Source: Psammoneis japonica
Taxonomy: Eukaryota
NCBI GenBank assembly: GCA_008632985.1
Contig: QPGO01000317.1
Span: 1 to 58,484 of the forward strand
DNA: 58,484 nt
Reading direction: 5' to 3'
Every line of letters begins with the position of its first letter. Positions within the stretch are counted from its first letter, which is position 1. This document shows positions 1-28,079 of the stretch, piece by piece. The notes under the pieces are model-generated. The model saw only the letters and a program-made list of their open reading frames with translations, was not told where the DNA came from and did no database searches. The position numbers and the translations under genes were made by a program.

Positions 1-596
1 CTGCAAAGGCCAATGAGATCATCATCATCTTTCACTCCAGTGATGTCTTTCATGAGCTCCATCTGGCGTCTGCGATGCGTGTCTTCCACTCTCTCCTTCT
101 TCTCCACCTTTGTGTCTCTGAGTGCCAAGTCTTCTGCAGCTTTGTCTTTGTCTTCTTCTTCCTTGTCTGCATCTTCCTTCTTGTCCTCAGTTGATTCATC
201 CATGGCCACACCTTGATCTTACTCCTCCATGTTTTTTTTTGCAGCTGCAACCTTGCAGTGCCAGCCACGGCCTTTTGCAGGTCATCCGTCCATTCAGTGC
301 TGTCCTCCCCCTCTTCTGTTTTGTCCATGTCTTCAGCATGCTCCTTCAACTCTTCCCTTCCCTCCTCCAACTCTGCCTTGTCACATGCATCCCATGTAAA
401 AGCGTTGTGCATGCAACAATGGTGATGGATCCTTCTGCAAAATTTGTGCCACACAAGCCCGGGAGCCACCTTGCACCAACCAGCTGGGTGATCCAGCCAG
501 CGGCTTCTTGCAGCAGTCCTTCCTGCTTGGGCCCCCCGGGAAGTGAGCTTCAAAGATGTGTTTGTTGTTGTTGATGGCCTCCACTAACTCAGAGTG

Positions 597-2149
597 TCAT
601 TGCGGTGCAGGAGGCTTGCACACCTGGTCCGGCAGACACGGATGGTGTTTGTCTTCATCAACATTGAGCAGCCGCATCACATGGCTGTGCCACCAACCTG
701 CAATGATGTCAAACAATGCCTCCAATGGCAGCATCTTCTTGGGGTCACATGACTCAAACAGTAAAATCCTCTGGCAGCCCATCAAACAACAGACAAGCAC
801 TTTGCACTTTGCATCACTGGGAAGCTGGGCAATGTGCAGATCTTGCAACATGTCATCATCTGACTGTTCAAGCTTCTCCTTTTTGCAATGCTTGTCATGC
901 AAAACACAGTCGCAACTGTCAGACACATTGCTCTTCTTCAACTTCTTATGCTTGGTGGGTGGTTTGCGATGCTGCTTTTTGTCCACCTGCCTCCTCTGAG
1001 CAATTTTGTGAGGAACAGAGCAATGGTTGATGGTTTCACCCCAGTGCTGTTTTGCAGATAAAATGGGATGACTTGTTTCACAGTGGAACTTGACATGCAA
1101 TCCCTTCAAAGCCAACATTTCAAAATGATTCTTGAACCGCTTTGGAGACTTAATGTCCCACCAACTTTTGTGCATGACATTGCCAAAAGGCAGCCACGCT
1201 TTCTTCCTCAAATCTTTGGTTGATTTATCTGGATCACAGGTTTTTAGGTGTTGAGTGTTGACCAAAGATTCCTTGTGAAATCGGACCTGGGCATTCAGCA
1301 AATGTTCAGCAACACAGGTGTCTTCATCAAGTGGTTCCTCCCAATGGTCTTCATTTTGGCTGATCTCTGTTCTGACGTTGTCACACTTGAGGCTGGAATG
1401 AGGCAATGGCAAAACAATTGCAGAGCTCATTGGAGCAATTGTCTTCTTGGCACACAGGGCAAGAGTGTTGCCTTTGCCCTTCTCCATGAGATCCCCCCAC
1501 TTCCAGTGCTTTTTGATGTCCGCCAGGTCAGAACGTTCACTCATTGTGTCCATGATGTCCTTGAAAACCAACACTCCCATGAAGCAAGACTTCAATGTCT
1601 TCTGACAATGAAGACATGCATCCATCTTCTTGGTGACACCATGGCAAATTGCTTGGGCAAGTCCAATCAAAAAAGGACAAATGCCTTGACTCAAAGGCAC
1701 AGTCTTTTGTTCATCATCGCCCGTCCTGAACACCACAACCTTGGAGTCTCACACATGGATGTAATCAACAATCAGGCCAATGTTTGTCTTGACACAGTGC
1801 ATCAAAACAGCAGCAACATTTTGGTTCTCCTTCATGATGTCCCTGATCAACATTCCTGATGGCACCGCAACCAGCATCAAGAGGTGCTGGTGCTTGTCTT
1901 TAATGCAGTTCTTCAGCTGCTGTTTATTCTCAGGGTGAAATGCTTCACAAAACCAATCGACAACAGCGTTGTGGAACATGTTCCATGTTTTGGAACTGTT
2001 GAATCCATCAGAGCCATTGTTGTGATGAAGAAGATGGAAGAGAGGGCTCTGGTCTTCTTGATTTCATGATCTCTCATGGCAGAGACGTCATCCGTGGTCA
2101 AGACGCTCAAATCCACAAGACCTTGTGGGCACACAAGGGGATCAACCAC
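597..2149 (-). pseudogene. Degenerate TE-associated ORF of unknown family, possibly with a GNAT-like segment
   Basis: Collinear minus-strand ORF pieces at 1913-2149, 1749-1979 and 597-1736. IVDYIHV...SQGICPFLIGLAQ weakly resembles GNAT motif A. Confidence 0.25.
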
Positions 2150-2375
2150 ATCTTGGAGAGGTGCAGTGTGCCAAGTTCTGCCTTTGCCCTTCGGTGGGCA
2201 ATGTTCCTTGAGTGCCTCAACACAGCGCTTGATGCAAAAGGGACACCTTCAATGGGCTGGAAGTGTCATTGTCAGCTTGAAAGGAACAATTGCCACCAAT
2301 GGAAGAATCAACCATTCCTTGACATTTCTTGGCAGCTGCTTTGGCCAACATGTCCATGGCAATTGCACTGCTTTT

Positions 2376-2630
2376 GCACTCCTGTTTGTACAACAAATGC
2401 ACTCCAGAGAGGGGGACAACGTCAGTTGCCGCAAAATTGATGCAGATGAAAAGAGGCAGCCTCCAAGGCAGTTCCAGATGCTGGAAAGTGTCAAACAGCA
2501 AGCTGCACTTCCGCTTGTATGACAAATGCACTCCAGAGAGGGGGCCAATGTCAGTTGCTGCAAAAGTGATGCAGATGAACAGAGGCAGCCTCCAAGGCAG
2601 TTCCAGATGCTGGAAAGTGCAAACAGCAAG
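2376..2630 (+). repeat. Tandem duplication, 2 x about 129 bp
   Basis: acaaatgcactccagagagggg...gcagttccagatgctggaaagtg occurs twice, in units starting at about 2376 and 2505. Confidence 0.9.
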
Positions 2631-5600
2631 TGTCACAGTGCAATCAAACCAACACAAGATTGTTCCAGTGGCAACTGTTGCGCAGAAAACGTTGGGGCAA
2701 ATGCTTGAGTGATGTGGGAATTCCAAACAACCTGGTGCAAAACAACCACAAAACGGGGCGTGAGAAGCAACCAGAAAAAATCACACGTGCAGTGACATGC
2801 GGCAACAACAACATGATAAATCAAGTTGCCAAATTTGAAATGAGAGAGTGCAAAGAGATGGTGTTGTCTGCAACAACAGCAACTCTACAGAGCCGCAATC
2901 ACAATGTGACAACAATGATGTGACTTTTAAATGAATGGAACAGACGGTTCCATGCAACCGCAAGGGCAAAGAGGGGGTTGTGGAGTGGCAACAGTGGTGT
3001 GCTGCATTGTGGCTGGTGTTGTGTGTTGGGCTTTTTGATGTGGACGGCACGTGCACGTAGAAGTCGGTGTTGTCCTGCGCATCGCCAGAACAACATTAAA
3101 TGCCAACTGACACGATTCCACCTGTGACAAAATGTGCACCTTGGTGGTCGGAGATGATCATTGACATCCCATGTGTCCCATCATTGGAAAATTAATGTTC
3201 GCAAAAAGCCAAAAAGTGCGAGCTCTGCCGGGTGGAGACAAAAATGTCTGGTGCTGAAAACTCCATAGAAAATCTTGCGTGATGAAAAGCTGATCACCTG
3301 GAGCTGGAACAGGCCAATGGAGAGCAATGTGAGATGGAAGATCTGATCAAACAAAACCATCTGGCCTGCTCTTCTGTCAACCACATGAGCATTGCACAGC
3401 ACCAGACAGGTTTGTCAATCTCCCTGCCATGATGGGAAACAAAATGAGTGAGCCTTGTGAAGACTCTGCAGCTGCAAAGACCCAACACTGCGCACTGCGT
3501 CACATTGACTCCAATGCAAATCAAGCAGAGGTCATGCATTTGTCTGCACACAACATTGTGTGTCTGTCAACACAGCACAGTGCAGCTCTTTTCTTGACAA
3601 GACCCTGGATGTCACAGGAAGTGTTTTGGTGAACTGGGTTTTGAGGTCATTGTCATGCAGGTTTTGGAAGATGTGTGTGTGCAACAATGGTCTTGCCCTT
3701 TTTTTCTGTGTGCAAAGTGCCCAGTGAGCTGCCATTTTTGATTCAAAGCAATGCAACATGCTTTTGTCACATGGAAAAGTTGCGGATGGTGGGTGGGTCC
3801 ATTCAACCCCACATTTTTCTGATGCATGGAGCTGAAGCCAAGACCTAGGACTGGCAGATGATTGAGCTGATGGCCAATTTTCGCAAGCTTCAACCTTCCC
3901 AACCTTCTTGCAATCTCACCACATGCTCAAGACCACAACCATGGCATCATTCTTTTTGAAACAATGACTTGGATTGCTTGTTGCAGATTGCAATGTGGCT
4001 GCTGTTGCCATTCATCATTTAGAAGACAGTTGGGTTGTTGTTGTAAAATTCTGCATGCAGCAGGGGACAAACAGCTGGAACAATTCACCCAAAACACATT
4101 TTTTGCTGGTGTGTCCACCATCTAAATTTTTCTGCTTTTTGTGTTGAGTGTTGATGTGGGAGATTGCATTGTTGCACAAATGTCTCTGTTGTCCCTGTTA
4201 GAAGGCATCTGTGGCATGACACATTTTCCCAGTCTTGGCTTCTTGAGAGTGGGTCATCTTGGCACCTCTCCCTGTCTCTTTCTCTCAATGAGCATCACCT
4301 TGCTGTTGGCTGCTGCTGCTGCTGCCGCTGCCATGAAGGTGCCCAAGACCTCACTGGCAGAGGCTCATGACAACAAGGTTCATTCATTCATTGAATGACT
4401 TGAGATTGACAATGGTGATTTTCATGGTGTGTGGTCTCCATGAAGATGTCCTGGGCAGTGGGTCAAAACAGAGGGATCAAGTGGCTCCTCTTTTGCATCC
4501 CTTGCACTCTCCACTCCAGCAAATTCCTGCAATGTGACTGCACATCATTTCTTGTTGCATGTGGGCAGCACCACAGAGAGAGAACAAAAGAAGCTCAGAC
4601 AAGAGACATTGGCCATGCAGTGCTGGCAACAGCTGCTCCAAAGAGCTGTCCCAAACATGAGGAGCACACACATGCCCCAGTGAAGGCCGGGTCCTTCATG
4701 ACAACAGAGAGCTCAGCTGCCACAAATGGAGCAAAATAGCTGAAGTGCAAATTCAATGTCTGTGTTTCCTGCACCACCTGAGAAAGACATTTCTCCTTCA
4801 TTTCCAAAGCACAAGCTGTGCTGTGGTCTCTCCCCATGTGTGCCAGAGTCAATTCCATCTGCTGCAACTGAGCTGCCGCACCAACCCATGCTGCTTTGTG
4901 CAACAAGTGGACAAAGTTCTGTCCATCACAAGAGGCTCTTGACAAAACATCAGAGCTGGTGGGAGGCTGTGCACCAGCTCTTTGAGCCTTGCTGGCATGG
5001 AAGTCTGCCTCATGTCACTGTGGGAGACTGTGTGTTGAGAGCACTCTGCTGTCACAGTTGGGAAAGAGCATGTTGCAATTGACCTGCCAACAGCACTCAC
5101 CTGCTTCCAAGTGCAGCATGCAGTGTGCAGTGCCAGTGCAGCAAAACCAGCCATTGACACAAAACAAAGAGCAAGCTGCTGCACATTCTGCACCCCACAA
5201 CAAAGTGCACCAGAGGTGCAGACTGCACTGCAAAACATCAAAGACAGCATGCAGTGTGGACGGTGGGCTGTCATTGCTGCAAGAGTGGCACGCCAACACC
5301 ACCAACAACAAGAGGCAGAAAGAACAGAAGAGCTTCAGGAGACTGGCTCTTCCAGAGAGTGCACAGTTGTTTCTGATGAGACCATCATCAGAAAGTTGTG
5401 GGTGCCACTGTGCTTTTCCTTGTGATGGAAATCAGCAGGCCCCCTGAGTCCTGGCAGCACATGCTCCTGTAAGATGAGCAAGAACTTGGGGGCAAAGCAA
5501 GGGTGGGCACCTGCTTTTTGGCTGGCTTGGCACCTGATGCATCATGTGTGCCACAACAGACAATGCAACAAATCATGACACATCCATGACCTGTGTGTGC

Positions 5601-6236
5601 AGTGTGTCAATTTGCTCAGCCCAGGCACTGAGTCAAGCAAGCAACTGGCTGAGCATGTGTTGATCATTTGAGTTTTGAGTGCAAGGATGGTGGCTCATCA
5701 GAGGCCACAATGTGGTGCTGTTCACTTTCTCCTTTGTCTCATTTGGGACATTCAATGTTGTGTGAGTGCATTGTTTTTTTTTTAACTTTGCTTGCAAAGG
5801 TGTCAGTCACGTTGAAATTGTTGTCACCTTTTTGTGTGTGTTGTTGCTGCCTTTTTGTTTTGATTTAATTTCAGCAATGCATTTTCATTTCAATTTCATT
5901 CGCGCACAATGCGTTTTCTTTTGACAACTTTGTTGCATGTTCATCAAAATGTTAAATTTGACAGTTCTTTTCAACAGCTCCACCCCACTCATGCACCACC
6001 ACAGAGGATGGCATTTCTTCTGTGCCCAAGTCAGCCCCATGAGCACTTGGCTCATTGTTTTCACCTGCACTTGCCAGAATTTCAGTCCATTGCTCTCCAC
6101 CTGGTTTTTGGTGCATTTTCTGCATGTGCAATGCTCTGCCTGTTTCATGACAGTGCATCCTCTGCCCAAAATGCATTTGATGAGAGTGTGTGCTGTCATG
6201 ATTCATGTGCATTCTACATGAATCGGCAACTGACTG

Positions 6237-9200
6237 TTGGCCATGGCAGCCAACAACTTTGCCTTGTCTCAAGACAAGGTCGACCCTGACCCTTCCTTCC
6301 AAATTGCCGATGACTGCAATTTTGATGAAATGGAACATTTCACCAATGGTTTTGGATTCGAATTGTTTGGACCCAAGCTCAAAAGCAGAATCGCAACACG
6401 TGCATTCAAAAAGCAGTTTTTGGAGATGACAAATTGGACCCCCTCTCCAGAATTCCTTGCTCTTCCCTTCCTTTGCCACAAGCCAAAGTTGCGTCATGTT
6501 CCATGCATTGTGGAAGTCATCCGCACCAATGACATTGCAAGGAAAACTCTTGGCTGTCCCAACATCTGGTCCCACATCATGACTCAAGGTTGGTCCATTG
6601 AGAAATCTCACGTGCTGAAAGGTGAATGTGTCCTTTGACACAAAAATCTCAAGGAGGCTCTCTGTTTCTCCAAAACATCTGGAGAGACAGAAAAAGAAGA
6701 GCAGAACTGTGTGCTTCTCCACTGCAACATCCAGGCAATGGCAGAATTTGTCTGTGCAATCATCACCAGTGATGACCCAAATGATCCCGTCTCTGGTGAG
6801 CCTTGTTTCCGTTTTTTACGTTGCAAAAGTCTCCAAAATTTGATCAACAAACAAGCCCAAGTCCTCCACAGTGCATGCTTTGTCACTGACATTGTCATGC
6901 ATTGCGTTCAGTGCAAACCCAAGGACATGGGCTGTTGGTTCCTGAAGATTTTTTGTCATGTCAACACCCAAAAGGAATGGCGCATGTTTGTCAACAGCTT
7001 TCTGGTCACATGCGCTGCCAATGATCCTGGTTCCCAGGCGGGTGAGATCAAAAACACCGTGACACGTTGGGGGCACACGAATCATGAATTTGGGAAGCGT
7101 TGTCCTGAGGAGCAAACTGGCATCCAACCCAGGTGCAGCAAGCAGCTCACAATGCTTTGTTGCAGAATGCATGATCAGAGGGCTGACTGCTTGGCAGATG
7201 ATGACAAACAAGAGTGCAAATTAAAGCAAATGCAAAATTAAGAGGATCTGCAAAGATGGCACCTGTTTGTATGATGGTGAGCAACCCCCCCCCCTGCCTT
7301 CATTCCCCTGCCTGCATCTGTTGTCTCAAGGCCCCTCCTCCCACCCTCTGACTTTACATGCCCCACCAGAGCCTTCCTTGACCATCCCAAACAAGAAGGC
7401 CAAGCCTGCATCTTGCTCAAAACCAGCACCTCCTTCATTGTCTGGTGATGTGCCATGGTCCAGGGAGGCACACCAGACTCTCAATGCCAATCTTCTGTTG
7501 CTCTTGGAAATCATGGATCCCCAAAAACCCTCTCCTGCTTCCAAAGGTGCTCCCTCCAAATGGCACTCCTCTCTTCCATCTGTTTTGGCAAATCCTGCTG
7601 TCATCATGTCTCCTCCCACCAACCCCAATGACATGTCGTGGCTGGACAAGTCCACCCTCCACGATCGCGTTGACCCGTCCAAGTGTCAGCCTGTCACCTC
7701 CAAGGAAGTTGCTTCTCATTTGTCACATCTGCACATCATTGACAAAGCCACCGACACTGATCGTGTGCTTCATCATTCCGCTGCCAACTTTCACCTGGCA
7801 GACAACTTGCGGGAAAACAGGCACATGTTCTCAAACAAAACTCCTTCATGTGATCCCGCCACCACATCTCATGTCCAAACCAAGCACCCTCCTCACCTTG
7901 ATCACTTCTCTGAGGAACTGTCCATCGCCCAACAAGCCGACTCTCTGTACAAAGGGCACTTTGGGTGCCTTCGTGCATGCATTCCCACCCGTCTGCTTTT
8001 TATTTTGTTGAAGGGTGAGTCAAATTTGACTGATGATGGACTGGTTGCAGTTCAAAATGGCAAAGGATGTAGGATGAAGTTTGGTTGTGCCGGGCAAGCG
8101 CATCATCCAAAGGTGCCCGGCTCCACCAAACTTGCCAAACCCAAGGCCACCTGTGGACTTCATGTTTTCGAGCAACGCCAAGGAGTTCTCCAAAATCAAG
8201 GCCATGGCAGCAGACATTCTTGACTCGATTCAGCCACACAAAAACGAGGCAGAGCTGCAGGAAAACGAGGTAGAGCTGCAGAAACTGAGCAATCCGCCAC
8301 CATTCAACTGGTTGTTTTGGTGCAAGGAGCATTCGAAAGTGTTGTGCAACAAAATGGGTTGTCTTTTCTTTAAATGCAAGGACGTCACTGCGCAGGGATT
8401 GTGCATTTCCTGGGATCAAGTCTGTGATGGTCACTGCGACATCAAAAACTGCACCTGGAGTTGATGTGGGAAAACAGCCACAGGTTTTTTTTTTTGTGGA
8501 TGCCTTTGGTGACACATGGTCCTTCAAGGCAGTTGCCAATGGCAGAACCCCCACTGGTGAATGCTGTGATGACCAGTGCGACATGAAGCCAATGCTGACT
8601 TGCGTGCTTGACTTTGCACATAAAGACTTGGACCTGCAACACAATGGTCCCTCCCACCCTGATGTGTTGCTTTCCAGCAGTGCATTCAAGCATCTTTCCC
8701 TTGACAACAACAGGCCGTGGGACAATGTTGCAACAGGCGGAGGTGGCAAATTGGGGTGTCTCAAGGTGTGCATGGATCAGCTCAAGTTCCCAACATTCCC
8801 AGTTCGGGACTTTCACTTGTCTGCTCCAGTCACAGTGCTCTGCCGTTTCAAGAACATTGTGCACCAATCTGGGCCAGACCCAAAATGAGTCATCAGATTG
8901 GCAATCCATGCAGAGGTCATCCAACTGGACATCACCGCTTTTGCCATGTGGGGGACAAGCATCTGCCTGACCTTTGTTGCAAAGGCACAGACCCATTTGT
9001 GCAACAATTTGCCAATTGCTTGATGAGTGCATTTGGCATGTTGTTCGGCGACCCACAGGCTGGACAGATCAGCCCCACCTGCAGCATGCGACTGTCATGT
9101 GCATGCACATGATTGCACATCATTCACATGTCAATCGTGCCACAGTCGTGGATGCGTGCGAAGGACAGAATGATCACACAGAGTTGGTCGGATGTCGAGA

Positions 9201-9257
9201 ATTGCAAATGCGATCGTACGATGATGTTGACATCTCATGTGTCAATGTCAATTGTAC
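6237..9257 (+). pseudogene. Long degenerate ORF of unknown TE, interrupted by the ISL2EU insertion
   Basis: Successive plus-strand frames 6237-6638, 6711-7241, 7267-8223 and 8424-8888 are broken by TGA stops and frameshifts. No family motif recognised. Confidence 0.35.
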
Positions 9258-9352
9258 AGACCTTTTTTGGCGGATGATTGATGGACCATTGTGACAGCGC
9301 CAACTCTTCAGACCGCAGAAGCCACAAAACATCAGAATCAGCCGCAACGACG

Positions 9353-11911
9353 ATGACACCCCAGCTCACACTGCTGACCTCACCATGTCGTTTTTTCGTG
9401 ATTTACACACTGTCGAGCAAGCATCCAAGTTCCTTGATGTCTTTGCAGCGGCCTTGCACGTTGTGGAGCTACTTGAGGGGGAAACATGCTCCATCTCTGG
9501 ATGCAACTGCCCTGCCGTGTGCCGCAACAGATCAAGAGGACCTGGCTCCGGTCACTTTTGCATTCTCCACTGTCAAGGGTGGTTCCCAAAAGCTGATCAA
9601 GAAAGCAATTGTCAAGGGTGGGGTCTCTGTGGGTCTCAACATCTCTGTGATGAAGCACTTGGTTGCAAACAGAGTTGCTGTTGCTGTGACGACAGCTGCT
9701 TGAAGATCGGCTGCTGCACAACCAACGCAAGGATGCCTCGAAAGAAGGAAATTTGGACCAAGATTGTAAATGCCATGGGTGGAGACCTCTCAGATGTGGT
9801 GAAGGACAAGCTTCAAAATGAGCCATGTGCGGGACTGTGGCTGGCCCCGTGGCATTTTAGACTGGAAGAAAGGACACACAATCCCAAGACGAAAGAATGG
9901 ACGATGAACGAGATTGATCCCAACAAGCAATGTCATGATGGCGACCACTTTGCACGGACTGGTTTTCCACCACCAAACCACCTGCCTTCAGACTGAATTG
10001 CATGCAAGCTTTCTGATCCTGCTTGGGAACGACCAATTGACAGGTGGAAAAGCAAGCAGGCGGCATCAGTGCGAGCCGCAGGCTTGCCGTCGTGGGTTGT
10101 GGCACACCGTTTGGTCAAACCACTGAGTGAGCGTGATCCCAAAACTCCTCTTACACAAAACTCAAGTTGTTGCAAAGAAAATGTCTAAGATGGCTGCATT
10201 GAAAACAGAAGAGTCAGAAAAGAAGGATGACATCATTGCAAATCTTCGCAGCACCCTTGCACTCGCAAACCACGACAAGAATGTCTCTGAGAAGAATGCA
10301 AAGCAACTTCAGAACCAACTGGAGTCCTGCAAATTGGAACTCATTAAGTCCAAAGAGACAATGCTCGAGTTGGAAGACGAGTTGGTGGCTGCTCATGCCA
10401 CAAACAAGGATCGTCCTTTGTCTTGCAGCAACCTTGCGCCAGGTGGCAGACTTTCAAAGGCAGTGAGGACGCATGCGCATTTTTCCAACTGTGATTCTAA
10501 TGAGGCCTTCCTGCGTGTTCTGAATTGGGATGATGACACAGAGGGAGGTGGTTGCGACCATGGCGATGGACTGTGTGTTGGCTTTCGTCAACACAGCAGG
10601 GTGTCTGCCAAAGAACGACTCAGAGAAGTGGATGTCAGTGACCAGGAGTTTCCCACCAAACCTGAAGCAAGAGTTGTTGATTGGAAGACCAAATGCTTGA
10701 TCTGTTCTGTGCATGCAAAACTTGGAATCTCGTACGAAGCCATGGAACCTTTGTTTGCCATCTCTCCTGGCATCATCAGTGACATGACACATGCTTGGGC
10801 TGTCTTCTTGAATCATTCTCTGTCACTGTGGTTTCCGACTCCAACCAGATCACAAATGCTGCGGGCTTTCCCTGATCAATTTGTGTGGGCTTATGGACAT
10901 GCCCTTGTCTTCTTACTTCTCGATGCAACAGAGTGTTGGACACAGACAACAACCAAGAGTGATGCTCACTCGAGTGTGCACAGTGACTGCAAAGGTCATG
11001 ACACAACAAAAATGCTTGCAGGCACAGATCCCATTGGTTGTTCCCATGATGGATCCATCACGGAAGATGGGTGCCCGGGATCAATTTCAGATCCTGTCGC
11101 AACAAAGATGAGCAAGCTTTTGGACAACGTGCCCTTTGGTCACACGACTCTGGATGACAAAGGATTCACGATCGACAATTTTGCAGCACGGAAGGGCGTT
11201 GGGACCCAACGACCTCCGAAGAAGACAAAGCTGCAGGTGAAGCAATCAGAAGCGGACACGGCTGCAACGCAAAAAGTTGGGAATCTGTGAATCTTTAGCA
11301 AGATGGTGAATGGAGCTGCAAAGATGTTGACGCATTGTTTTGATTTGCCAGTGCCGATCCTCCAGCTTGGTCTTGTGCCTTTGATGTTTCGAGTGGCACA
11401 TCTGATGCAGAACTTTCATCCTGCATTAATTCATGGGCAGACGTCATCATTCGTTGACAAAAATGGCAAGGTGCAGTCAAGAAAGCGACCATGCCGTGGT
11501 GAGATCCGATGGTGCGGCGCAACAGATGAAGGCCTGTTGGATTATAGAGGTCACATTCATCTTTGGGGCAACGTAAAAGAGGTTGATAGATTCACTTTTC
11601 TGAGAAACGAGCACCTAGACAAGAGTCTTGTCGAAACAGGCGAGATGGCACTGCAAGAGAAATGGGACAACAAGCTGCGAGAAGGTCACACGAAGCATGC
11701 AGTCGGCAACCCACAAATTATAACAACGAATGTCGACACTGTCGTTACAAAAAAGAGTGACCTTGCTGTCATTACAACAACGAGTAAAAGTGCTGTCGTT
11801 ACAAAGCATGTCGATGCTTTCATTGCAACACCAAGTAAAAGCACCACAGTTGCAATGCATGCCACCAACATCATTGCTGCAACAACAAGTGCCGACACGT
11901 CACCACTCTAA
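9353..11911 (+). pseudogene. ISL2EU/Harbinger-type DDE transposase with Cys-rich/THAP-like N-terminus, inactivated
   Basis: Motifs WFPTP..MLRAFP, LLDATE, HSDCKGHDTTKMLAGTDPIG (consensus YSxYKxxNTxKxLxGxxPxG), PGSISD and DDKGF. In-frame TGA at 11288 (probably from CGA) and a frameshift near 9390. Confidence 0.8.
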
Positions 11912-14166: not shown

Positions 14167-15141
14167 GGGTCTGCTCAGAGATGATGCTCAGCATGTGAGT
14201 GCTTTGACAAGCGCACCTCGACGTTGTGCGATGGAGTGTCGAAAATCCAGAAAAAAGTCAGCGCTGTCACAAACAGCGATTTTCGTCTGCATGTCTTCCG
14301 CCAAAAAAGGTCTATCCAGACAATCTGTTGTCACGATCTTATTCTCCGAAAGGCCTTTTGTCTGTAGAGGAGCAGTGCAAAAGGTTTGGGCCATTGAGAA
14401 CCCGTTCGGAGAAACCCAAAATGATTGAGCAGAAATAATTCTCACAATTTCCACTTTTCGCACACCATTCTACTTTCGTTTGCACTCGTTCTTCAAGCAC
14501 AGTGCACACCAATTTGACGCACGAGAAGATTTTGGAGGCATTTCTAGACCAGAGGTGCATCGCCATGGCAAATGACCCAGTTGACACAATGGTGGACAAA
14601 ATCTGTTCTGCACTCCTTTGGATGAACATCAACATTGACATCCAAGAGTTCTGTCCCAATTTAATGGCAACGGTGCAAGGTGGCGTGTGATGCTTGGGCA
14701 GACCAAGGAGCAGATTTTAGCTAGATTCATCTCATGTTGGCACTGCAATGTCTGGTGCCAGCTGGTGTTGCAGTGAAGGGCCATCCACACCTGAACAACA
14801 TTGTGCATCCTGTTTTCAATTCCAGAGCTGCTGCACAACTGGAGCACATCGACCCGGAAGAAAGGCCGCTCATGCACCAACAGATGTCATCAGAGACAGG
14901 AACCAAAGAGCACAGTTGGAATGGAACTGAGCACAAACTGTGTGAGAATTCCAACAATTGCTGTGCCTGCATTTTTGATTGTGTGTTCCATGGTCCCTGT
15001 TCAGGACAAGACCTGTTCACCTTCTCTCCCTCTGGTCAGCATCTCTGCAAGCCATGTGGGTTAACTGAGTGTCAAATTTTGGAGTGTGTTGATGATGACC
15101 CCAACATTTGCAAATGATGAGACAACCCAGAAGCAACCTCA

Positions 15142-16503
15142 TTGGTGGGTGATTCCGCCATGCACTTGGGCAGCTCTGTTTCCTCTGCACATGACGGACA
15201 AGTGGCAGACAATGAACTGCACTCATTGTCTGAGGACGGCAACAGCGTTTCCTCTGCATGTGACAGACCAGCGGCAGGCAATGAACTGAACTCCTTGTCA
15301 GAGGACGGCACTGGCATTTCCTCTGCAAGTGAGGGACTTGTGGCGGACAATGAACTGAGCTCATTGTCTTTGGAGGACTGCTCATGTCATGATTCTGAAT
15401 GCCACGCTCCAATTGTCATGGCAGAATCAGTGGTCATTCAGTCATCTGAACAAGAATCAGGTGCAGATGATGCACGTGACAACATTGTGGACAATCAACC
15501 CATGCCACCAGTCCTTTCACAAGTGCAAAATTTTGACATGGACGATTGCATGGGTGCCATTTTTGCACAAGTCTTTGAACTGCCAACCAACTCATTTAAT
15601 GTTTTGGTGTGTTGTTTTACACAAAATGTCACCTTGGAGATCACCAGACACAACAGAGGTGCAAATGTCCTGTGGCTGTGCATGACAAGGCCTGTCAATG
15701 CAGGAAATCTGTCCTCCTTGGACGATCTTTGTTTGGACCGTGGCGTGGTGGCTGTCCAATCCACACAGCAAAGAAGAGATGAGGCAAGGTGCCAAGTTGC
15801 AAAGGATCTTCACACAAACTCAAATGTCTGGGTTTGCACCATGTCCCCACAGGATGGAAGCGCCATGCATCACTTAAATTGCAACATCTCTGCAAAGGAT
15901 TTCATCACATGCGTCAAGTTGCGATTTGGAAGTGTGATTGATTTTAAGACCAGCAGATTTATTCAGATTTGCATTGACTGCTGCTGGATGCAAAGAGGGG
16001 AGTGGCAGCAGACAACATTTGGAAAACAATTCTTTTGCAAAAAACTGAAAGAGATGATGGAAATGTTGTTTCATCTGAAGCTCAAGAGGTGCCGCATCAT
16101 TGTCCCGTGCAACCTGTGGTCACTGGCCCAAGTTGTGCACAATTTGGAACACACAGAAGAACATGCACTGGTGCTGGGTGTGACCAAGGAGATGGCGTGT
16201 AACGAAGTGACAATTTGCCAGGCTTCTTGGGAAATTGTTGAGCAGGACCATGGGGATTGGTTGGGCAAACCATCTGACCAGGAAGCACTGCATTTGGGAG
16301 TCACAGAACAGGAAATTTGGGAAACACTCCCAGATGCAGAAGCCTGCAATTCGCACATGAGTGTCCCAGTTACAATGAAAAGAAACTGTTCAAGTTCTTT
16401 TCATTCAAGAGGAGAACGCCAAATTGGAAGGGGCAGGCAGGCAGATGGCCTTGCAGTTTTTTGGAAATGCAGGTCCATGTCAGTTTTGTGTTTGGTTCCT
16501 TAA
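15142..16503 (+). pseudogene. Degenerate unknown ORF with three 69-bp (23-aa) acidic repeats
   Basis: SSAxxxxxADNELxSLSEDG units at about 15178-15380. Tyr-free 453-aa frame. Confidence 0.35.
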
Positions 16504-16509
16504 AGCAGG

Positions 16510-18279
16510 TGAATGATTGTTGTCTCTGTCATCCAGATCATGTCCCTGCTGCACATGACAGTTGCTCATTTGTTTTCATGCACTCTTGTGAAATGGCTCT
16601 CCTCATGTTTTTCTGCGGTCTTGGACTGCCCAAACATGCTTTGTCCTCTTGTGTGTCTCTGCAATGCCGGGTTGCTCCTCATGCACCAACAACTTGTCAC
16701 AAACGGCGTCGATTGGCACCAAGTGCAGCTTTGGTGAGCACACTGTGAGTTCAGAAGTGGACAAAGCTTGGTTTTTCACTTGGTCCAATTGCCAGCAACT
16801 GACCAGGTCAGTGTGTTGGTGCATGTGTTCCACCATGGAAAACTTGTCAGCTTGGTGCACGCAAGGGTGAACAACTGCATGTGACTCACCATCGCTTTCC
16901 TTTTTAAAGAAACAGTGCAGTCATGATGGGAAGCACAAATCCCCCCTTCTTGTGCCAAAGTTCACATTTGCAGTCATGAAGGGGTCCTTCACTGTTGCAG
17001 TCTGGGTGAGCACGGTGAGTGTCCTCCCCATTTTTGTTGTGAAACTCCATTTTGCAAATGAGATTGATGGAGAAATTCTCTCCTGCTCCAACGCAATCCC
17101 TCCATTTCTTTTGAAAGAAATTGAGCAGGACTGGGCACACCTGACATTTCTTTTGCTTTCCATGCCAGAGGAAGCTGACTGCCTTGTTTGTTGCACTGTG
17201 TGTGATGGAAAATGTGCTGCCACCCAGTTTGTGATCTTCAGTCTCACAAGTCATGTTGTTTCATCCCAGTTTAGATGAAATCCATGGGTTCACCAACAGT
17301 GCATGGTGCACCGTCATTTGGTCTTGCACGCGTGACGCCACCTGACTCAGGAACATGTCAAAGCTGCGTTGTTGTGCCGTGGCTGATGGCAATTTGAAAA
17401 AGTCCTTTAACAACAATTCACCAAGACCCACGTCAAAGTTCATGGCATGACAGAAATGATGCAGAAAGATTGGAAGGTGAAGAAGCTTGTAAAGCTTTTG
17501 CAGCTTTCACCCAGCCCCTTTGTGTCCAGGGGAACAATGGACAATGCAAGACACCAGCAACCAAATTTTCTTTGAGATTTTGTTCAGGTTGGTTTTGTCG
17601 TTTGGTGGGTCACCCAGTTGATGGCAAGCATGGAAGGTCAGCAAGTCTTCCAGCAACTGGACACATTGCCTGACACTGCAGCCAAGGGGCTGTCTCTTTT
17701 TTTTTTGCTTTTCCATTGATTGCTGTTGTTGTTTCCTTCCTCCTTGGACTCGTCCTGTTGGTGTTCCATGGAATTGTCAGCGTCGGTTTTGCATGGAGCA
17801 TCTGTTTCATTGTCAGGATCACACTCATTGTTGGGGTTGTGCTCTTCCGGGCTGTTGAAGCAATTGATTTGGAATTTGGGAATCCTGCACCCGTTTGGCA
17901 ATGGAGGAGCATTGGTTTGGTCATGCTTGTCAGGAGTTGGCCCAAGCAGGACATTCGCAACAGATGCCCCACGTCGTGACCTCCTGAGCCAGGGTGGTGA
18001 CAAGCAATCTGATGAGGAAGAAAGGTCAAGATCCGCCGACCGCTGTCTGTGCAAGATGTCATTTATGCCAGGGGAAGTGTGACCCACAACACTGATGGAC
18101 AACTCTGGCAATGGGCAGGTGGCAACTGTCTCTTGACGTGACAAGCTGGACATCTCTCGAGCAAAAGAAAAACATTGCGGGTTGTGATGGAAATGGGTGA
18201 GCATCTGTTTGAATGATTGTTTACAACACGGACATGCAACTGCACCATCCTCAACCTGCCAACCAGTGTTTCCTTCCAA
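16510..18279 (-). mobile_element. Plavaka/EnSpm-like transposase remnant, internally deleted
   Basis: NFDVGLGELLLKDFFKLPSATAQQR and HRAHPDCNSEGPLHD (ancestral YRAHPDY..GPxYD) match C-terminal motifs I associate with Plavaka-type transposases. N-terminal CPCC..H...C finger at about 18240. Confidence 0.5.
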
Positions 18280-19847
18280 TTAGAAAATCCAGGGCATTTG
18301 TGTGCTCCACAAATGCATGTGTGGAGCAAATGCCTCACCGGTTTAGACAATGAAAAGTGAAATGATTGTGGCAGGCAGCAAGGAAAACACGACATGAATT
18401 GGTGCAAAAACATGGGTGCATTGCATGCTTCCTGTCAATGTAAACATCAACAGGTGGGAATGAATTGAATGCAATGCAATCATTGATTGCTTTGAGCATG
18501 AACAACAGATTGCAAAGGGGTTCAATCTACAGAAATGAGAAAGTAAGTTGCAATGTGATGGTCACAAGCAATGTGGACAAACCACACCGTGATGCTTGAT
18601 TGAGTGTGATGGCAGGGGTGCACCCACACCTGCAGCAGGAGACAAACACATCGCTGTCAACCATGAACGTCATTGTGAAAAATGACAGATTAATGGCCCA
18701 TTGGCCAAATGACTGCTGACAATAATTTGATGCTTTGTTGACAAACATGACGAACAAAAGAAGACAACAAATTGTGCAAGCAGAGTGCAACGCGGCTTTC
18801 AACGAAGTGGAGCGCTTGACAAATTCAACAGACTCAGGGAGAATGGTGCATTCTGATGGCACTGGTGGCAGTTGGTTCAAGGAGGGGAGGAGGGAACATG
18901 TGGATGACTCTCACCTCTGCCGTGACTGCATGGACCTCTGTTTTGCATGTTCTCCAGTGCACAATGGCGTGGGGATGATGACGATTGCCGGTTGATTTGG
19001 GAGGAACACTGGAAGAAGAGATGCAACTTGATGGTTTGGGTGTGCAACCATTTGAAGGGATGGAGTGATGAAGTGATTGAGTGCATGCATGCCAGCACAT
19101 GCATGTTCTCCATGAACAATGACCTCCACTGGGTGAACAGCGTCGTTGATTGTGGGGTCAACACTCACAAGTGCAAGGGCTGTTGGAACTGCATTGCAAC
19201 ACACCAAGACAGGCAAGAAAGGAAGTGCTGTGTCTGCAGTCATTGCCACAACAATGGAGAGAGTGAAATGAGGGATGAGTTGGCGGTGGGGTCCTTGTTT
19301 TACAATGCAAAACTTGTCATGGACATGAGAGACATTTTGGCATTGAGAGAGAAGTTGAGCGTCAGCTTGCCAACTTGTGGAATGGACAAAAGAGGCATGT
19401 GCGAACCATTGGGAGAAACATCAAGGTGGGGAGGCACTTGCAGACCAGTGATGGACAAGGAGGGGATTGCGTTTGATGCATTGAAAATGGTGAAGTGGTT
19501 CCAGCGTGACATCTTGTGGGACAGGCATGAAAGACTTTGGTTCTGTGACATGAACCAGAGTTCTTTCTTTTGTCTCCCAGGACTGTCAATGAATGGATGC
19601 TAGATTTGAATGCAAAGGAGAATCAAGGTGAAATTTATGAGCAGCAGAATTTTCAAAGCAGGAGAGAGGAAAGGTGTTGGGTGGAGAAACTGCGGTGTGT
19701 TCAAGCAGACAGTTTTGTGAGATGTGTCAGAGCAGAGTCATTGGCTTTCAATTGCATGACTGATTGTTCTGACGCCGGGTGTCACAGCAGGTTTAGAGTT
19801 GTGAGGCTAGAGGGAGATGACAAAGTGAACCAGATGACAATGTGGCA

Positions 19848-20797
19848 CCAAAAATGCTGGTTGTGCTGCAGCACAAGTGAGACACCGGGATGGTGTCAAT
19901 GCATGTGTCGTTTGTTCATTGTGACAAAAAAAAATTCATGGTTGCATCTCTTTAACATGCCTTTTTAAGTCAGACACCTGTGCTTGCCATTGAATGGGTT
20001 GGAAGTGAATTTTGACATTGCAGTCATGAAGAGGTTTGAACTGGAATTTGTGTGGATCGAAATTTTTCAAAAATGATGAGGAATGGCAAAATTGACAAAT
20101 TTAACACATGTTAAAAGTTTTGGACAAATCTCAATTATGTTGCAATTGAGAAAAGACAATCATTGGTGAGAGTGTCAGGTGTTCAGGTTGCTGGTTGCCG
20201 GTTGTCAGTTGCTGGTTGTTGGTTGCTGGTTGTCGGTTGCTGGTTGCTGGTTGCTGGTTGTTGGTTGCTGGTTGGCGGTTGCTGGTTGGCGGTTGCTGGT
20301 TGCTGGTTGCCAATTTTTGGTTGCCGGTTGCCGGTTGCCAGTTGGCGGTTGCTGGTTGCTGGTTGCCAGTTGCTGGTTGCCAGTTGCTGGCTGCCGGTTG
20401 CTGGTTGCCAGTTGCTGGTTGCCAGTTGGCAGTTGCCAGTTGCTGGTTGCCGGCAGCTGCCAAAAATGCTGGATGCACTGCAGCACAAGTGAGACACCGG
20501 GATGGTGCCAATGCATGTGTCATTTGTTCATTGCGGTTAAAAAAACCTTTTGTGGTCATATCTCTGAAACATGCCTTTTCAAGTGAGATGCTTGTGCATG
20601 CCATTGAATGGGTTGGAAGTGAATTTTGACATTGCAGTCATGAAGAGGTTTGAACTGGAATTTGTGTGGATAGAAATTTTTCAAAAATGATGAGGAATGG
20701 CAAAATTGACAAATTTAACACATGTCAAAAGTTTTGGACAATTCTCAATTGTGCTGCAATTGAGAAAAGACAATCATTGGTGAGAGTGTCAGGTGTT
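19848..20797 (+). repeat. Two diverged direct repeats of about 337 bp (19848-20183 and 20460-20797) flanking a heptamer array
   Basis: Both copies run from ccaaaaatgctgg to gagagtgtcaggtgtt. Confidence 0.92.
20184..20459 (+). repeat. 7-bp minisatellite (RGTTGCY)n
   Basis: About 39 degenerate ggttgct/ggttgcc/agttgct units. Confidence 0.95.
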
Positions 20798-20895
20798 TGG
20801 TGTTAAAAGAGAGGTTTGAAATTTTTGCAATGGTGACACACACAAGGGACCCAAGGCACAGAGCCACCCCACAATTCACAACAGTGGCACAGGCA

Positions 20896-22099
20896 ATGGC
20901 AAAGAAGAAGAAGAAACAGAGTGTGGAGGTGGCTGGAGATCAACCAACCAGCCCAAGGCCAACCGCGGCATTGGTGAGGGTGGGAGCCACTGGGGATCAC
21001 CAGTCTACAAAGAGAGAGGTGGAAGAGGTGGCACGGAGGGAGCTGTTCCCAAAGGCAAAGTTCCTTGTCAAGGCAGACATGGCAAGCAGTGACAAAGTGT
21101 CACGGCTCATCAGGAAAAAGACAGCCGGTGGCAATTGCAGCAAGCAAGACTGGGCAGGAGCGTGGGAAGACTGGGCAAAGAAGTGCGACATGCATGTGAT
21201 CAACACAAAAAGGAGAACCGTCACCAGGCAACACAGAAGAATGCAAAAGCTGGCAAGTGTTTTGTGGTGCACAGCATCTTGATTGTTGTTGCACTTGACA
21301 CTGGTGTGCCCCTGTTTGCTGAAGTTGTGTTGACAGAGGACCAAGCCAAGGAAACACGTGGTCAGAAGAAACCTGCAGCAAGGGGAAGAGGGAAGAACAA
21401 GAAGAGGAAGAAAAACAATCAGATGGTGGATGAAGAACCATTCCTGGCAACTTGGGAGGAGGAGACAGTGACAACAATTGTGAAGGACAAGCGCAAGAAC
21501 AAGGAAGCACATGCTTGGTTCTATGACAACATCCTAAAATTCACAAAGAGCACCACGACATGGAGAAAGAAGGCAGACTTGGGTGAGATGAAGGCACCTG
21601 GTTTGACTGCGGCAAGCAACAAGGCTCTGGGGCTGTTGACATTGGAAAACTGCTGGAAGAGTTGGGAGCACAAGGCCCTTCATGAAGAAACTGTTGGAGC
21701 GGGGGGGACTCAGAGGATGAGGAAGAGTCGGAACCAGCACCCAAGTGCGCAAACCCGACCTGGCAGCAAGACTCGTGGAAGGATGAAGGGATGTTGCAAT
21801 TCAACGAACTGCTTGCAGAAGTGAAGGAAGACAGGTCAAGTGAGGAAGGTGTGCAGTTTGACACATGGTGCAGCAGCGGCAAGAAAAGGAAGAGTGACAA
21901 AAAAAGCAAGGGAGCAAAAAGAAAGAAAAAGCTGGTGGGGAAGGAGGCAAGAACACAGGCAATGACAGAGCTTTCAAGTGATGACAAGGAGAACGAGGAA
22001 GAGGTGATGGACAAGAACAAAGGCAATGAGGACAGCAAAGAAGAGGAAGAAGAAAGTGAAGAGGGAAGCAAGAAGGAAGCAGATTCAGACAATGAGTGA
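20896..22099 (+). pseudogene. Plavaka-type accessory ORF, degenerate, with a Lys/Glu-rich C-terminus
   Basis: RRELFPKAKFL, INTKR, ALGLLTLENCW and SWKDEGMLQFNELLAEVKEDR resemble the EAFxLLxxEN..W / GWSxEG...FN.L...V..DR pattern of TE accessory proteins. Frameshifts present. Confidence 0.45.
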
Positions 22100-24287
22100 G
22101 CTGCAGTGTGAAAAGGTGGCAGAGCCTTTTGTCAGTGCAAGAATGGAAAGTGGCAAAGCAATGCATCAGTGTTCATTGTAAACAGTTACAATGTGGCAGT
22201 GCAGCATTTTAGTGTTCATTGACACATGATCCAAACTGTCAATTGACAACCAGTGTTTGCAATGGAGCACTCCTCAAACCCATGAAACGTGTTGATCAGC
22301 AGTAATTTGTCATTTAAAAAGACTTTCAAACATCACAGTAAAAAGGTAAAAAGGGATGGCATTCTGAAGGTGGAATGAGTGGTGTGTTCATGGCCAAGGG
22401 TTGGATCTCACAGGGAAAGGTGGGTTCCAATGGCATGAAATGCTGGTCTGTCACAATTGATAAAATGTCACCATGCACACAACTGTCAAGGTTTGAAATC
22501 ACAACAATTGTCGCCACAATGGATTAAAAAACACCTGTGAGAAAGGTGGTCAGGATCACTGTAATGTGCGCTCTGATGCTGGTGTGTTTCCCATGAAAGG
22601 GTGCAGTGTTTGACACAGTGTTTCTGTTGTGTGTCTTCAAATTGCTCAGGCCTTGATTGCAGTGGATGAAGACTCATCCCAACTTGCTGTCTTTGATGCT
22701 GCTCTTGTCATTTGTTGGGTGTTGTGCTGCCTCCTCCAACTTGCAAGAAAAATGGGACTCAATTTTCCTCTCAGTCACGTGGCATTGTGCTCACACTCAT
22801 GAATGAAGGAAGTGCACTTGCAGTTGAGGGATTCATCAATCTTGTTAGAACAGGCTGGTTTCATTTTCCTGATCACTCCACAGCAGCCACTGAAATGCAA
22901 AATTTGTGGGTCACAAATTAATCAACAAAGACAAATGGCTCAAATTTTTTTCAAAATGAAAGCATGTGCAAGGTCTCTGAGCACTTCATTTTTCACTTCA
23001 AATGAGCAAATGCTGCTGTTTCGAAACCACAGGTCTGCAAGTGATGTGAAACAACTGGCCAATCAGATTGTTGTCATTGCAAAGAGCCATGTGATGTTTT
23101 TGTTGAAATCTTGCGATGCATCGTTGTGAGTTGCCACCAGAAGAAGGCAGTTTCCTTTGAAAATGATGACTTCTTGTCACTTCTCATGCATCATGTCTTT
23201 TCTCAATCAAAGTAAAAAGAATGCCTGCACCTTGAATTGCACCAGAGGATGTTGTCCGCACTGCAAAGACAATCTCTTGGAGAGTGACAAGGTCATGTCG
23301 CAACTCACACGGCACGGTGATTGTGCGGGGATTCAGAATCTGTTGCAACTTTTTTGATTCAGCAGGTCTGGCAGGGCACCGCATCAAGTGTGATCATGTT
23401 CTGCTCTTGGTTCTGTGGATCACAATGTTGTGGTGACTCTGCCACTGCCCCCACTTCCCACTCCTGCTGTCTTGCCGTTGACATCGCCGTTCCAAAGCCT
23501 CTGCCGCTTCCAGCTCCTGGACTGCCTGCTCCATTCAAGACCCTGTGACCAAGGCACACCATGCAAGCATGGAACAGAAATTCCATGGAACCCATGAAAC
23601 TCAACATGGCACCACCATCATCAACTCTTTGAATGATTCCAAAATCCACCTCATCCCTTTTGCCATCGACCACCTTGGTGCACCCGGATGCTCAGCTCAC
23701 CATCTGCTCTTTGGTGACACCTAAAAAACCCTCTCCCTCCCCCATCCCCTCCACCCTGGAACTTGAAATCCTCCTTCCAACACCCAGCCACCTGCACATG
23801 CCAGTGCCCGACTCTCCCCCCCCCCAGGAAGCCTCCTCCCTGTCGCCATGACATCTTGGACATCCATCACCTCAACCAGATTCGGGCTCACACACCACGC
23901 CACCACCCCGAGCCAATGGGGCTTCCAAAGCTTCAATCTTGTGGTCCCTCGCTGACCATCCTTCGCCACTGCACCAAACTTCAATCACAACTTGCCAATC
24001 CAACTCCGAGAACTCCCCACCTGCATGACGCCGCGCGCAGCGTTAGTTTCATCCCACTGCGCCGTCTGTGCTTCACACCGCGCCACTAGGTGACGTTGCG
24101 CGTGACCTCCTCACGCAAAAGCCTTCACGCTCCGCCCTTTGCGATGATTCCATGATTCCCTCCAGAAGCAGAAGTGCCAGCATGAATAGGTCGAAAAGAG
24201 AGGGTCTGCAGATCGAGGAAGCAAAACGTTAATATTGTGTAATGCTCTTTTGCATTTGATCTGTTGATTCTTCTCTAATTTTCCGCT

Positions 24288-26138: not shown

Positions 26139-26141
<3 letters not shown>

Positions 26142-26234
<93 letters not shown>
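26142..26234 (+). repeat. Compound microsatellite (TC)n(CA)n
   Basis: Directly visible in the sequence. Confidence 0.98.
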
Positions 26235-26237
<3 letters not shown>

Positions 26238-27648: not shown

Positions 27649-27804
27649 GCCAGTCAGAGCTCCTTGCCTGCTGTCACCGGGTGGTAGAAACTGCTCTGCG
27701 GTTAAGTAGAGAAACCGCAAAACTACATTCTAGAAGATTTTCATTCGTTACACACAGTGCGGCATTCCTGACTTTGTCTCTATTATACGAAGTACACACT
27801 CAAA

Positions 27805-28070: not shown

Positions 28071-28079
28071 TAGATTTCT

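Follow-up and report, generated by a model that had tools for sequence, protein, structure and literature searches.

Evidence for targeted TpA hypermutation of mobile DNA in a diatom contig

In a 58,484-bp stretch of the genome of the diatom Psammoneis japonica (contig QPGO01000317.1 of assembly GCA_008632985.1; hereafter the window), blocks of mobile DNA have lost most of their TA dinucleotides. The affected DNA includes a Helitron, a Harbinger-type transposase remnant and other multi-copy sequence, and we consider it highly likely that a targeted hypermutation of TpA struck it while the host genes nearby were spared. The process is specific to TA, symmetric between the strands, dependent on the flanking bases and apparently fast relative to ordinary decay; it runs from A:T to G:C and is confined to mobile DNA. 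An original prediction, made from the sequence alone, had proposed such a process and knew of no description of it. One now exists, as this type of mutation is reported for Bigelowiella natans, a chlorarachniophyte, from mutation-accumulation lines (bioRxiv 10.64898/2026.01.13.699255).

TA is depleted in sharply bordered blocks

Dinucleotide observed/expected ratios (o/e) were computed in 1-kb steps, in pooled blocks and in 200-bp bins. The base composition of the window is even, and in 1-kb steps the GC content of TA-poor DNA is the same as that of host DNA. The TA ratio in 1-kb steps is 0.03-0.25 over 1-24,000, 0.49-0.70 over 24,001-28,000, 0.05 over 28,001-29,000, about 0.25 over 29,001-32,000, 0.47-0.98 over 32,001-44,000 and 0.09-0.35 from 44,001 to the end. 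Pooled by block, it amounts to 0.10 in 1-24,090 (157 TA), 0.04 in 28,051-29,600 (4 TA), 0.30 in 29,601-32,000 and 0.17 in 44,301-58,484, and to 0.56 and 0.60 in the host blocks 24,091-28,050 and 32,001-44,300, respectively. The loss is thus confined to mobile or foreign DNA, with 0.04-0.17 in the TA-poor blocks versus 0.56-0.60 in the host blocks. The depletion is real: the first 24,090 bp hold 157 TA against 965 at the host ratio (Poisson probability of 157 or fewer, 3e-229).

In 200-bp bins the first switch in TA content falls near 24.0-24.2 kb, and the others follow near 28.0, 29.5-29.6 and 44.4 kb, each border being about 200 bp wide. The sharp borders of the original prediction are therefore borne out, and its spot counts of 3 TA in positions 1-600 and 25 TA in 24,421-25,020 were exact on recount. 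Its TA-poor intervals (1-24.1, 28.1-29.6 and 44.5-58.5 kb) also stand, except that 29,601-32,000 is intermediate and not host-like.

The dinucleotides CA and TG are raised in 1-24,090, with ratios of 1.72 and 1.74, respectively, compared with 1.07-1.20 in host DNA. Other A- and T-containing dinucleotides of this block keep host values (AA 1.23, AT 0.88 and TT 1.20, against 1.12-1.19, 0.84-0.89 and 1.15-1.16 in host DNA). The CpG ratio is 0.36 in 1-24,090, 0.22 in 28,051-29,600 and near normal, 0.86, in 44,301-58,484; the original prediction had not noted that a large part of the TA-poor DNA is low in CpG as well. A mass balance was drawn up with the host ratios as expectation. Missing TA plus CG and surplus CA plus TG amount to 1630 and 1749 in 1-24,090, 124 and 115 in 28,051-29,600, 282 and 349 in the Helitron, and 151 and 188 in 51,201-58,484. 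In the last of these blocks CpG is unchanged (524 observed, 521 expected) and TA has fallen to 63 from an expected 216, so the gain of CA and TG there comes from TA alone.

Tyrosine codons and repeat copies give the direction of change

The open reading frames (ORFs) of the transposons contain 0-1.0% tyrosine, with raised histidine and cysteine, compared with 2.7-6.1% tyrosine in host ORFs. Six peptide strings that the original prediction had quoted as instances of tyrosine turned to histidine or cysteine were all found in the translations. We aligned both Helitron ORFs of the window with an outgroup of 37 full-length homologues of normal tyrosine content. Thirty-four columns hold tyrosine in at least 50% of the homologues; the window has cysteine in 16 of them (TGY codons), histidine in 9 (CAY codons), phenylalanine in 4 and tyrosine in only 5. 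Of the 685 columns with other majority residues in the same ORFs, 527 are retained (Fisher P = 1.6e-13 versus tyrosine). Columns 881 and 885 form a YxxxY motif, which we take to be the catalytic tyrosine pair; both are tyrosine in 97% of the 37 homologues and both are histidine (CAC) in the window. Further over-represented replacements in the Helitron (Val to Ala, 7; Ile to Thr, 4; Ile to Met, 2; Leu to Pro, 4; Thr to Ala, 5; Asn to Asp, 3) are those expected from TA lying within or across codons.

The remainder of the protein has decayed no more than its relatives. In a leave-one-out comparison of the Rep ORF, the window retains 310 of 411 non-tyrosine majority residues (0.75), and 44 homologues have a median of 0.75 (range 0.64-0.83). 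The corresponding figure for tyrosine is 3 of 20 (0.15) in the window and a median of 0.71 (range 0.50-0.95) in the homologues. Because the non-tyrosine residues are preserved as in relatives, the TA changes appear to have built up much faster than ordinary decay. Two host proteins of the window served as controls. The dehydrogenase keeps tyrosine at 10 of 12 majority-tyrosine columns, the other 2 being phenylalanine, and AP-3 mu at 9 of 9; together 19 of 21 are kept and none has turned to histidine or cysteine.

In the genetic code, TAA can pass only to CAA or TGA, a TA across codons (NNT|ANN) gives NNC or GNN, and NTA gives NCA or NTG. A change from TA to CA or TG therefore cannot create an in-frame stop. 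It is for this reason that the Helitron, with 29 of 34 tyrosines lost, is still open as frames of 1107 and 805 amino acids.

Repeat copies carry the same imprint. Five local repeat pairs of the TA-poor DNA differ at 123 positions, of which 22 belong to adjacent TG<->CA doublets and 5 show TA against CA or TG; no doublet occurs among the 66 differences of a tandem repeat within a host gene. Tandem duplications at 19,848-20,797 contain 8 doublet positions among 27 differences. We also placed short-read contigs of run X1 with at least 80% likeness on positions 10,001-30,000 (n = 2104, most of them below 95% identity). Among 40 listed rows of the roughly 2300 variants, 12 form six TG<->CA doublets, 15 involve CpG, and 2 have a TA of the window as TG in other copies. 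A TG<->CA doublet arises when the same ancestral TA (or CG) is hit once, independently, in each of two copies. The process thus acted independently in separate copies, and the loss of TA is mutational, in the direction from TA to CA or TG. Mass balance, the tyrosine replacements with their host controls, the doublets and the undepleted AA, AT and TT together uphold the earlier proposal of T:A to C:G transitions at TpA in mobile DNA.

The loss follows a flank rule, treats both strands alike and is separable from CpG decay

The survival of xTAy tetranucleotides in TA-poor DNA was expressed relative to host DNA. It is 0.01 for ATAT and likewise for ATAC/GTAT, 0.08 for ATAG/CTAT, 0.12 for GTAC, 0.16 for GTAG/CTAC, 0.17 for ATAA/TTAT, 0.30 for both GTAA/TTAC and CTAG, 0.44 for CTAA/TTAG and 0.57 for TTAA, and it approximates the product of one factor per side. 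The Helitron, set like for like against 16 normal Helitron loci, follows the same order, with 0 for ATAT and ATAC, 0.03 for ATAG, 0.22 for GTAC, 0.83 for CTAG and 0.33 for TTAA. Among the tyrosine codons of the Helitron, A or G precedes in 8 of the 9 histidine outcomes, in which the T of TAY changed, and C or T precedes in 9 of the 16 cysteine outcomes, indicating that a flank promotes change of the neighbouring pair. Expressed as a change of A to G, the preferred sequence is 5'-TA[T>C>G,A]-3' (5'-TAY-3'); expressed as a change of T to C, it is equivalently 5'-[A>G>C,T]TA-3' (5'-RTA-3').

Both positions of TA are hit about equally. In 1-24,090 there are 2543 CA and 2643 TG, and 10 of 12 two-kb bins have |z| < 2. 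Moreover, arginine is kept at 40 of 46 columns of the Helitron and tyrosine at 5 of 34. Given this retention of arginine, and the strong TA loss in 51,201-58,484 where CpG is normal, TA loss is uncoupled from CpG loss. Decay of CpG to TpG or CpA overlies it in some blocks and can be separated from it.

The signature occurs in environmental Helitrons

Among the 150 best Helitron homologues in a library of 1.8 billion proteins, median tyrosine content is 3.3% and 136 have at least 2%. Eight fall below 1.2%, two of which lack tyrosine altogether over 1355 and 866 amino acids, and all eight are environmental sequences. Long Helitron 'proteins' with 0-1% tyrosine and raised histidine and cysteine are present in public sets (P0256, P0259, P0362 and five others). 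Since changes from TA to CA or TG never create stops, these low-tyrosine 'proteins' are hypermutated dead elements predicted as genes.

A metagenome scan with the mutated Helitron protein as query returned no relative; with the Helitron alignment it returned 39 loci. Three of them have TA ratios below 0.2 (L009, 0.02; L029, 0.18; L030, 0.11), four, forming two near-identical pairs, have 0.33-0.42, and the remaining 32 have 0.47-0.90. As the original prediction would have it, most of these Helitron relatives are not equally TA-free, nor are the host genes within the window, at 0.56-0.60, equally depleted. The loci L029 and L030 are 98% identical and differ at 42 positions, of which 12 are TA<->CA/TG and 8 are doublet positions; the control pair L023/L027 has 3 of 51 and the diverged control pair L024/L027 has 80 of 782. 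CpG ratios in L009 (6634 bp), L029 and L030 are 0.06-0.30. The occurrence of low-TA environmental Helitrons means that the signature of TpA loss is not confined to this assembly.

Proposed mechanism and alternatives

In our reading, one A:T pair of a TpA is changed to G:C, yielding TpG or CpA according to the pair hit. The agent would be an enzyme aimed at silenced or foreign chromatin, or directed by some guide, and not at repeats as such. Targeting by repetition is disfavoured because a single-copy piece is affected here, as is a single-copy viral insert in B. natans. The piece in question, 28,051-29,600, is single-copy at 80% likeness or more (host depth, one contig). The original prediction was accordingly right that mobile DNA is hit and too strong in restricting the process to repeats. 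The elements would be disabled by missense alone, above all by tyrosine to cysteine or histidine, the YxxxY of Rep included, while their long open frames persist.

As to chemistry, our leading guess, which we offer tentatively, is that a deaminase resembling TadA/ADAT2 turns adenine in DNA into hypoxanthine. We know of no natural enzyme with the role of converting A:T to G:C in cellular DNA, and the adenine base editors of the laboratory were obtained only by evolving TadA. In its natural setting TadA acts at U-A-C in the anticodon loop, a site that resembles the TAY motif. The system in the window probably belongs together with the TpA hypermutation of B. natans. A single nuclear A:T to G:C editor at 5'-TAY-3', shared by diatoms and chlorarachniophytes and guided to silenced mobile and viral chromatin, is conceivable, and we put it forward tentatively as well. 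If it exists, a natural DNA adenine editor would serve as a genome defence across the SAR (Stramenopiles, Alveolata and Rhizaria) supergroup, disabling invaders by erasing tyrosine codons and TA-containing signals and never creating stops.

Several points weigh against this account. No de novo mutation has been seen, the whole process being inferred from its end state. The mass balance and the flank ratios assume a host-like ancestral composition for repeats of unnamed type, and the Helitron-specific baseline lifts that assumption for one element only. The copy-to-copy spectrum is unpolarised (A>G 433, G>A 421, C>T 393, T>C 358, with 64-97 for each transversion), and the doublets among the X1 variants were judged from the 40 listed rows alone. 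In 17 polarised late TA<->CA/TG events, the base that follows the mutated A on its 3' side is T in 8, A in 6, C in 2 and G in 1; this weak agreement with the flank rule possibly arises because only TA in poor contexts remain. The environmental relative L029 shows no preference for ATA/TAT, and the rule may differ between lineages, or unmutated flanks may dilute the signal of that locus. Finally, TpA is palindromic, so that the sequence cannot tell whether the A or the T is chemically altered.

This last point leaves room for an alternative that keeps the targeted process and moves the chemistry to thymine. A TET/JBP-type oxygenase would convert the T of 5'-RTA-3' to 5-hydroxymethyl- or 5-formyluracil, which would mispair with G and be read as C. 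A change of T to C at RTA fits all results from the window exactly as well as one of A to G at TAY. It is also known that 5-formyluracil mispairs with G and that the 5-hydroxymethyluracil of dinoflagellates is enriched at TpA. The B. natans preprint favours deamination of adenine, by argument only (10.64898/2026.01.13.699255). We regard the thymine route as unlikely, at about half the weight that we give to deamination.

The other alternatives dispense with a targeted mutator, and we give each very little credence. The elements could have been TA-poor from the start, through horizontal origin or selection against TA; TA is indeed somewhat under-represented in most genomes, and host DNA of the window already stands at 0.56-0.60. 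This is very improbable, given that nearly invariant tyrosines, the YxxxY pair among them, became cysteine or histidine, which destroys function and does not adapt it. The bulk of the relatives, 32 of the 39 environmental loci by TA ratio and 136 of the 150 best homologues by tyrosine content, are of ordinary composition; copies differ by TG<->CA doublets; and non-coding and unrelated elements show the same loss.

Editing of UA in transposon RNA by an ADAR/ADAT-type enzyme, fixed through reverse transcription, has some appeal in that ADARs prefer to edit an A that follows U, and hyper-edit the RNA of repeats (10.64898/2026.01.13.699255). It is just as hard to credit, since the identifiable elements of the window, Helitron and Harbinger-type, are DNA transposons without an RNA intermediate. 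Pfam found no reverse transcriptase among 125 ORFs of the TA-poor DNA, and CA and TG were gained equally, with no transcript-strand bias.

A general drive from AT to GC in repeats, by GC-biased gene conversion or by error-prone Pol eta synthesis at WA, would push A:T to G:C by either route, and Pol eta does prefer WA sites. It has equally slim prospects, because AA, AT and TT stand at host values, GC content equals that of the host, and TA alone is lost. The Pol eta-type WA to WG synthesis listed as a candidate in the original prediction is likewise disfavoured by the undepleted AA.

A sequencing or assembly artefact is the least probable of all: although the runs with this sequence represent one sample, perhaps the source of the assembly, short-read contigs agree with the window across two borders (0 and 7 differences), the pattern tracks element borders and codon logic, and the same signature recurs in L009 and L029/L030, which are unrelated contigs from the environment, as well as in 8 of the 150 best database proteins.

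The affected blocks and their copy number

The large block 1-24,090 is a mosaic of repeats, as judged by composition and, for 10,001-23,340, by contig depth. Summed depth of the X1 contigs is 266-10,392 over 10,001-23,340 and about 50-64 for host DNA over 24,675-29,343; a depth so far above that of the host marks the former as multi-copy. The transposon origin claimed earlier for the first 24.1 kb is thus supported for 10,001-23,340, but the ORFs of the first 10 kb gave no Pfam match, the read-depth comparison having spanned 10,001-30,000 only. One X1 contig covers 23,540-24,279 with no difference to the window and another covers 26,243-29,724 with 7 differences and 5 gaps, each of them bridging a border. 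Short reads, suggested in the original prediction as a check, therefore reproduce two borders, but run X1 may come from the assembly's own sample and is not independent support. Run X2 covers the host part and almost none of the TA-poor part.

Within this block, a PIF/Harbinger-type transposase remnant (DDE_Tnp_4, PF13359; E = 1.4e-09, 38.2 bits; 0.5% tyrosine) lies on the plus strand at 10,127-11,290. Two adjoining ORFs on the minus strand at 11,908-14,187 are multi-copy (depth 330-416), with 0.2-0.5% tyrosine, 10-11% histidine plus cysteine, and a weakly XPG_N-like N-terminus. The XPG_N match, at 13,606-14,187, has E = 3.2e-4 and 21.5 bits, below the Pfam cut-off of 22 bits; the strings quoted earlier for an XPG nuclease are present, but the family assignment falls short. 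The XPG-like ORF, with one stop read through as X, had no match among PDB sequences, and the ORF 11,911-13,605 had no relative in a viral-contig scan. At 14,003-14,669 the depth peaks at 10,392, about 170 times that of the host, and many contig ends hang loose at 14,314, 14,319 and 14,422; the pattern suggests a short element, some 100-150 bp long and in very high copy, inside the TA-poor block. A second high-copy stretch, at 20,673-22,006 (summed depth 3200-3450), adjoins the tandem duplications mentioned above.

The piece at 28,051-29,600 is nearly free of TA and poor in CpG, and its bins at 28,010-29,343 have a depth of 59.6 from one contig. It is followed by a partly depleted block at 29,601-32,200 (ratio 0.30), with a depth of 470 in 29,344-30,000, which is probably a younger or less exposed mobile element. 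On its plus strand, at 30,289-32,193, lies an ORF of 634 amino acids with 0.9% tyrosine, which had no Pfam family, no relative among viral contigs and no usable match in a protein atlas.

The Helitron occupies 44,401-51,200 on the minus strand. Its Rep ORF (47,841-51,164), with the Pfam domains DUF6570 and Helitron_like_N, and its PIF1-type helicase ORF (45,505-47,922), with the PIF1 domain, overlap in different frames. The Rep ORF has 1296 homologues, the best of which has E = 1e-293 and aligns over residues 12-1081. The block holds 65 TA against 248 expected at host ratios, and 294 CpG against 393. Beyond it, 51,201-58,484 is GC-richer (52-60%), TA-poor, CpG-normal DNA of unnamed type, defined by composition; its long ORFs at 52,452-53,603, 53,760-54,701 and 54,918-56,429 had no Pfam family, with sub-threshold PHD and SET hints only. 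Pfam searches of 125 further ORFs of at least 100 amino acids from TA-poor DNA gave no significant family and three sub-threshold hints, so that most of this DNA has no named element type. Comparison of the window with itself revealed short local repeats alone, and no element present in dispersed copies.

Host genes of the window

The host genes at 24,091-28,050, on the plus strand, include a zinc-type dehydrogenase/quinone reductase at 24,323-25,405. Its named relatives are diatoms only, at 64-68% identity (Cyclotella, Corethron, Mayamaea and others). The second host block, 32,201-44,300, includes AP-3 mu at 39,220-40,119, a mannosyltransferase fragment and, on the minus strand at 43,168-44,256, a CAP-domain protein identified by Pfam. 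For AP-3 mu, too, every one of the best named relatives is a diatom (Thalassiosira, Mayamaea, Phaeodactylum, Seminavis, Fistulifera; 58-62% identity), and environmental sequences reach 78%. One host ORF had no usable match in the protein atlas.

A host ORF of 1132 amino acids at 34,504-37,902 carries tandem repeats whose period is about 230 bp (35,036-35,982, 84-90% identical). It has normal TA, normal tyrosine (2.7%) and spurious Pfam hints only, and it provided the host control for repeat divergence. At 24,312-24,402, in the 5' part of the dehydrogenase frame, an X2 contig omits 89 bases with GT..AG ends; run X2, though listed as 'DNA?', may hold spliced cDNA. Contigs of both X1 and X2 omit 249 bases with ends AT..AA at 24,571-24,821 inside the same gene, which could reflect an allele or paralogue with a deletion.

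Comparison with known systems

Repeat-induced point mutation (RIP) of ascomycete fungi changes C to T, creates TpA and stop codons, and needs duplicated DNA. The process in the window resembles it as a hypermutation by transitions that is aimed at mobile DNA, has sharp borders and leaves dead elements behind, and differs from it in creating no stops and in affecting the single-copy piece 28,051-29,600. Published RIP thresholds are TpA/ApT of at least 0.89 together with a (CpA+TpG)/(ApC+GpT) ratio of at most 1.03 (PMC7884421); the block 1-24,090 misses both, with 157/1427 = 0.11 and 5186/2865 = 1.81. All named relatives of the two host proteins are diatoms, and with a diatom host fungal RIP is an analogy only. 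Decay of 5-methylcytosine at CpG also produces TpG and CpA and is present in part of the TA-poor DNA. It is not a sufficient cause, as it cannot remove TA, and TA was lost in 51,201-58,484 where CpG is normal. The earlier judgement that neither RIP nor 5-methylcytosine decay explains the loss is therefore sustained.

TadA, ADAT2-ADAT3 and ADAR target A after U or T, as the proposed agent would. The known roles of TadA/ADAT and ADAR are in RNA, and ADAR, which needs double-stranded RNA, would leave a strand bias that is absent here. APOBEC3 provides a parallel for host hypermutation as a defence against mobile and viral DNA, in its case by a deaminase. It differs in converting C to U on single-stranded cDNA, with a strand-biased G to A outcome, in a different dinucleotide context and in retroelements only.

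The closest counterpart is B. natans, for which the preprint reports two integrated viral regions that mutate about 1000-fold faster than the remaining genome, at a directly measured rate of about 6e-7 per site per generation (10.64898/2026.01.13.699255). In those regions 230 of 231 changes are A to G or T to C, and all 230 fall on TpA. The B. natans genome contains 124 clusters of TpA-poor, CpA+TpG-rich windows, and DDE and reverse-transcriptase domains are over-represented in its TpA-poor coding sequences (10.64898/2026.01.13.699255). The same source proposes, by argument, an ADAT2-like protein as candidate and cites ADAT2 enzymes of amphioxus and Trypanosoma acting on DNA. By word search, its main text mentions neither diatoms nor flanking or trinucleotide context. 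In full-text searches, which leave most subscription journals outside their coverage, the preprint was the sole description found of TpA hypermutation in general, and no description in diatoms was found. Two further hits, PMC9258296 (diatoms and hypermutation) and PMC7884421 (Rhizoctonia), were set aside as descriptions, their matching passages being irrelevant.

The likeness to B. natans lies in transitions solely at TpA that yield TpG and CpA, in TpA-poor, CpA+TpG-rich clusters tied, in our comparison, to DDE transposase or reverse-transcriptase domains, and in a single-copy region as a possible target (28,051-29,600 here, a viral insert there). The host differs, B. natans belonging to the Rhizaria and the window to a diatom, as does the basis of the rate, measured there and inferred here from the end state. 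B. natans shows mild depletion (a TpA rho of 0.45 for the giant-virus region, none for the virophage region; 10.64898/2026.01.13.699255) compared with the near saturation at 0.03-0.17 over tens of kb in the window.

Now that a second lineage is known to be strongly affected, the enzyme can be tracked down through a comparison of genomes that bear the signature with genomes that lack it. Diatoms rank among the major primary producers and include genetically tractable species, which opens the B. natans observation to genetic tests. The process influences how transposons evolve and what base composition a region has, and it inactivates elements by missense only. It has a cost for annotation, as hypermutated elements keep long frames and tyrosine-free pseudo-proteins have already entered public protein sets. 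The window thus represents a second major lineage, and a much more saturated case, of the phenomenon first reported in 2026 in B. natans, to which it adds a rule of flanking bases, a TA loss uncoupled from CpG decay and the consequence that no stop codons arise.

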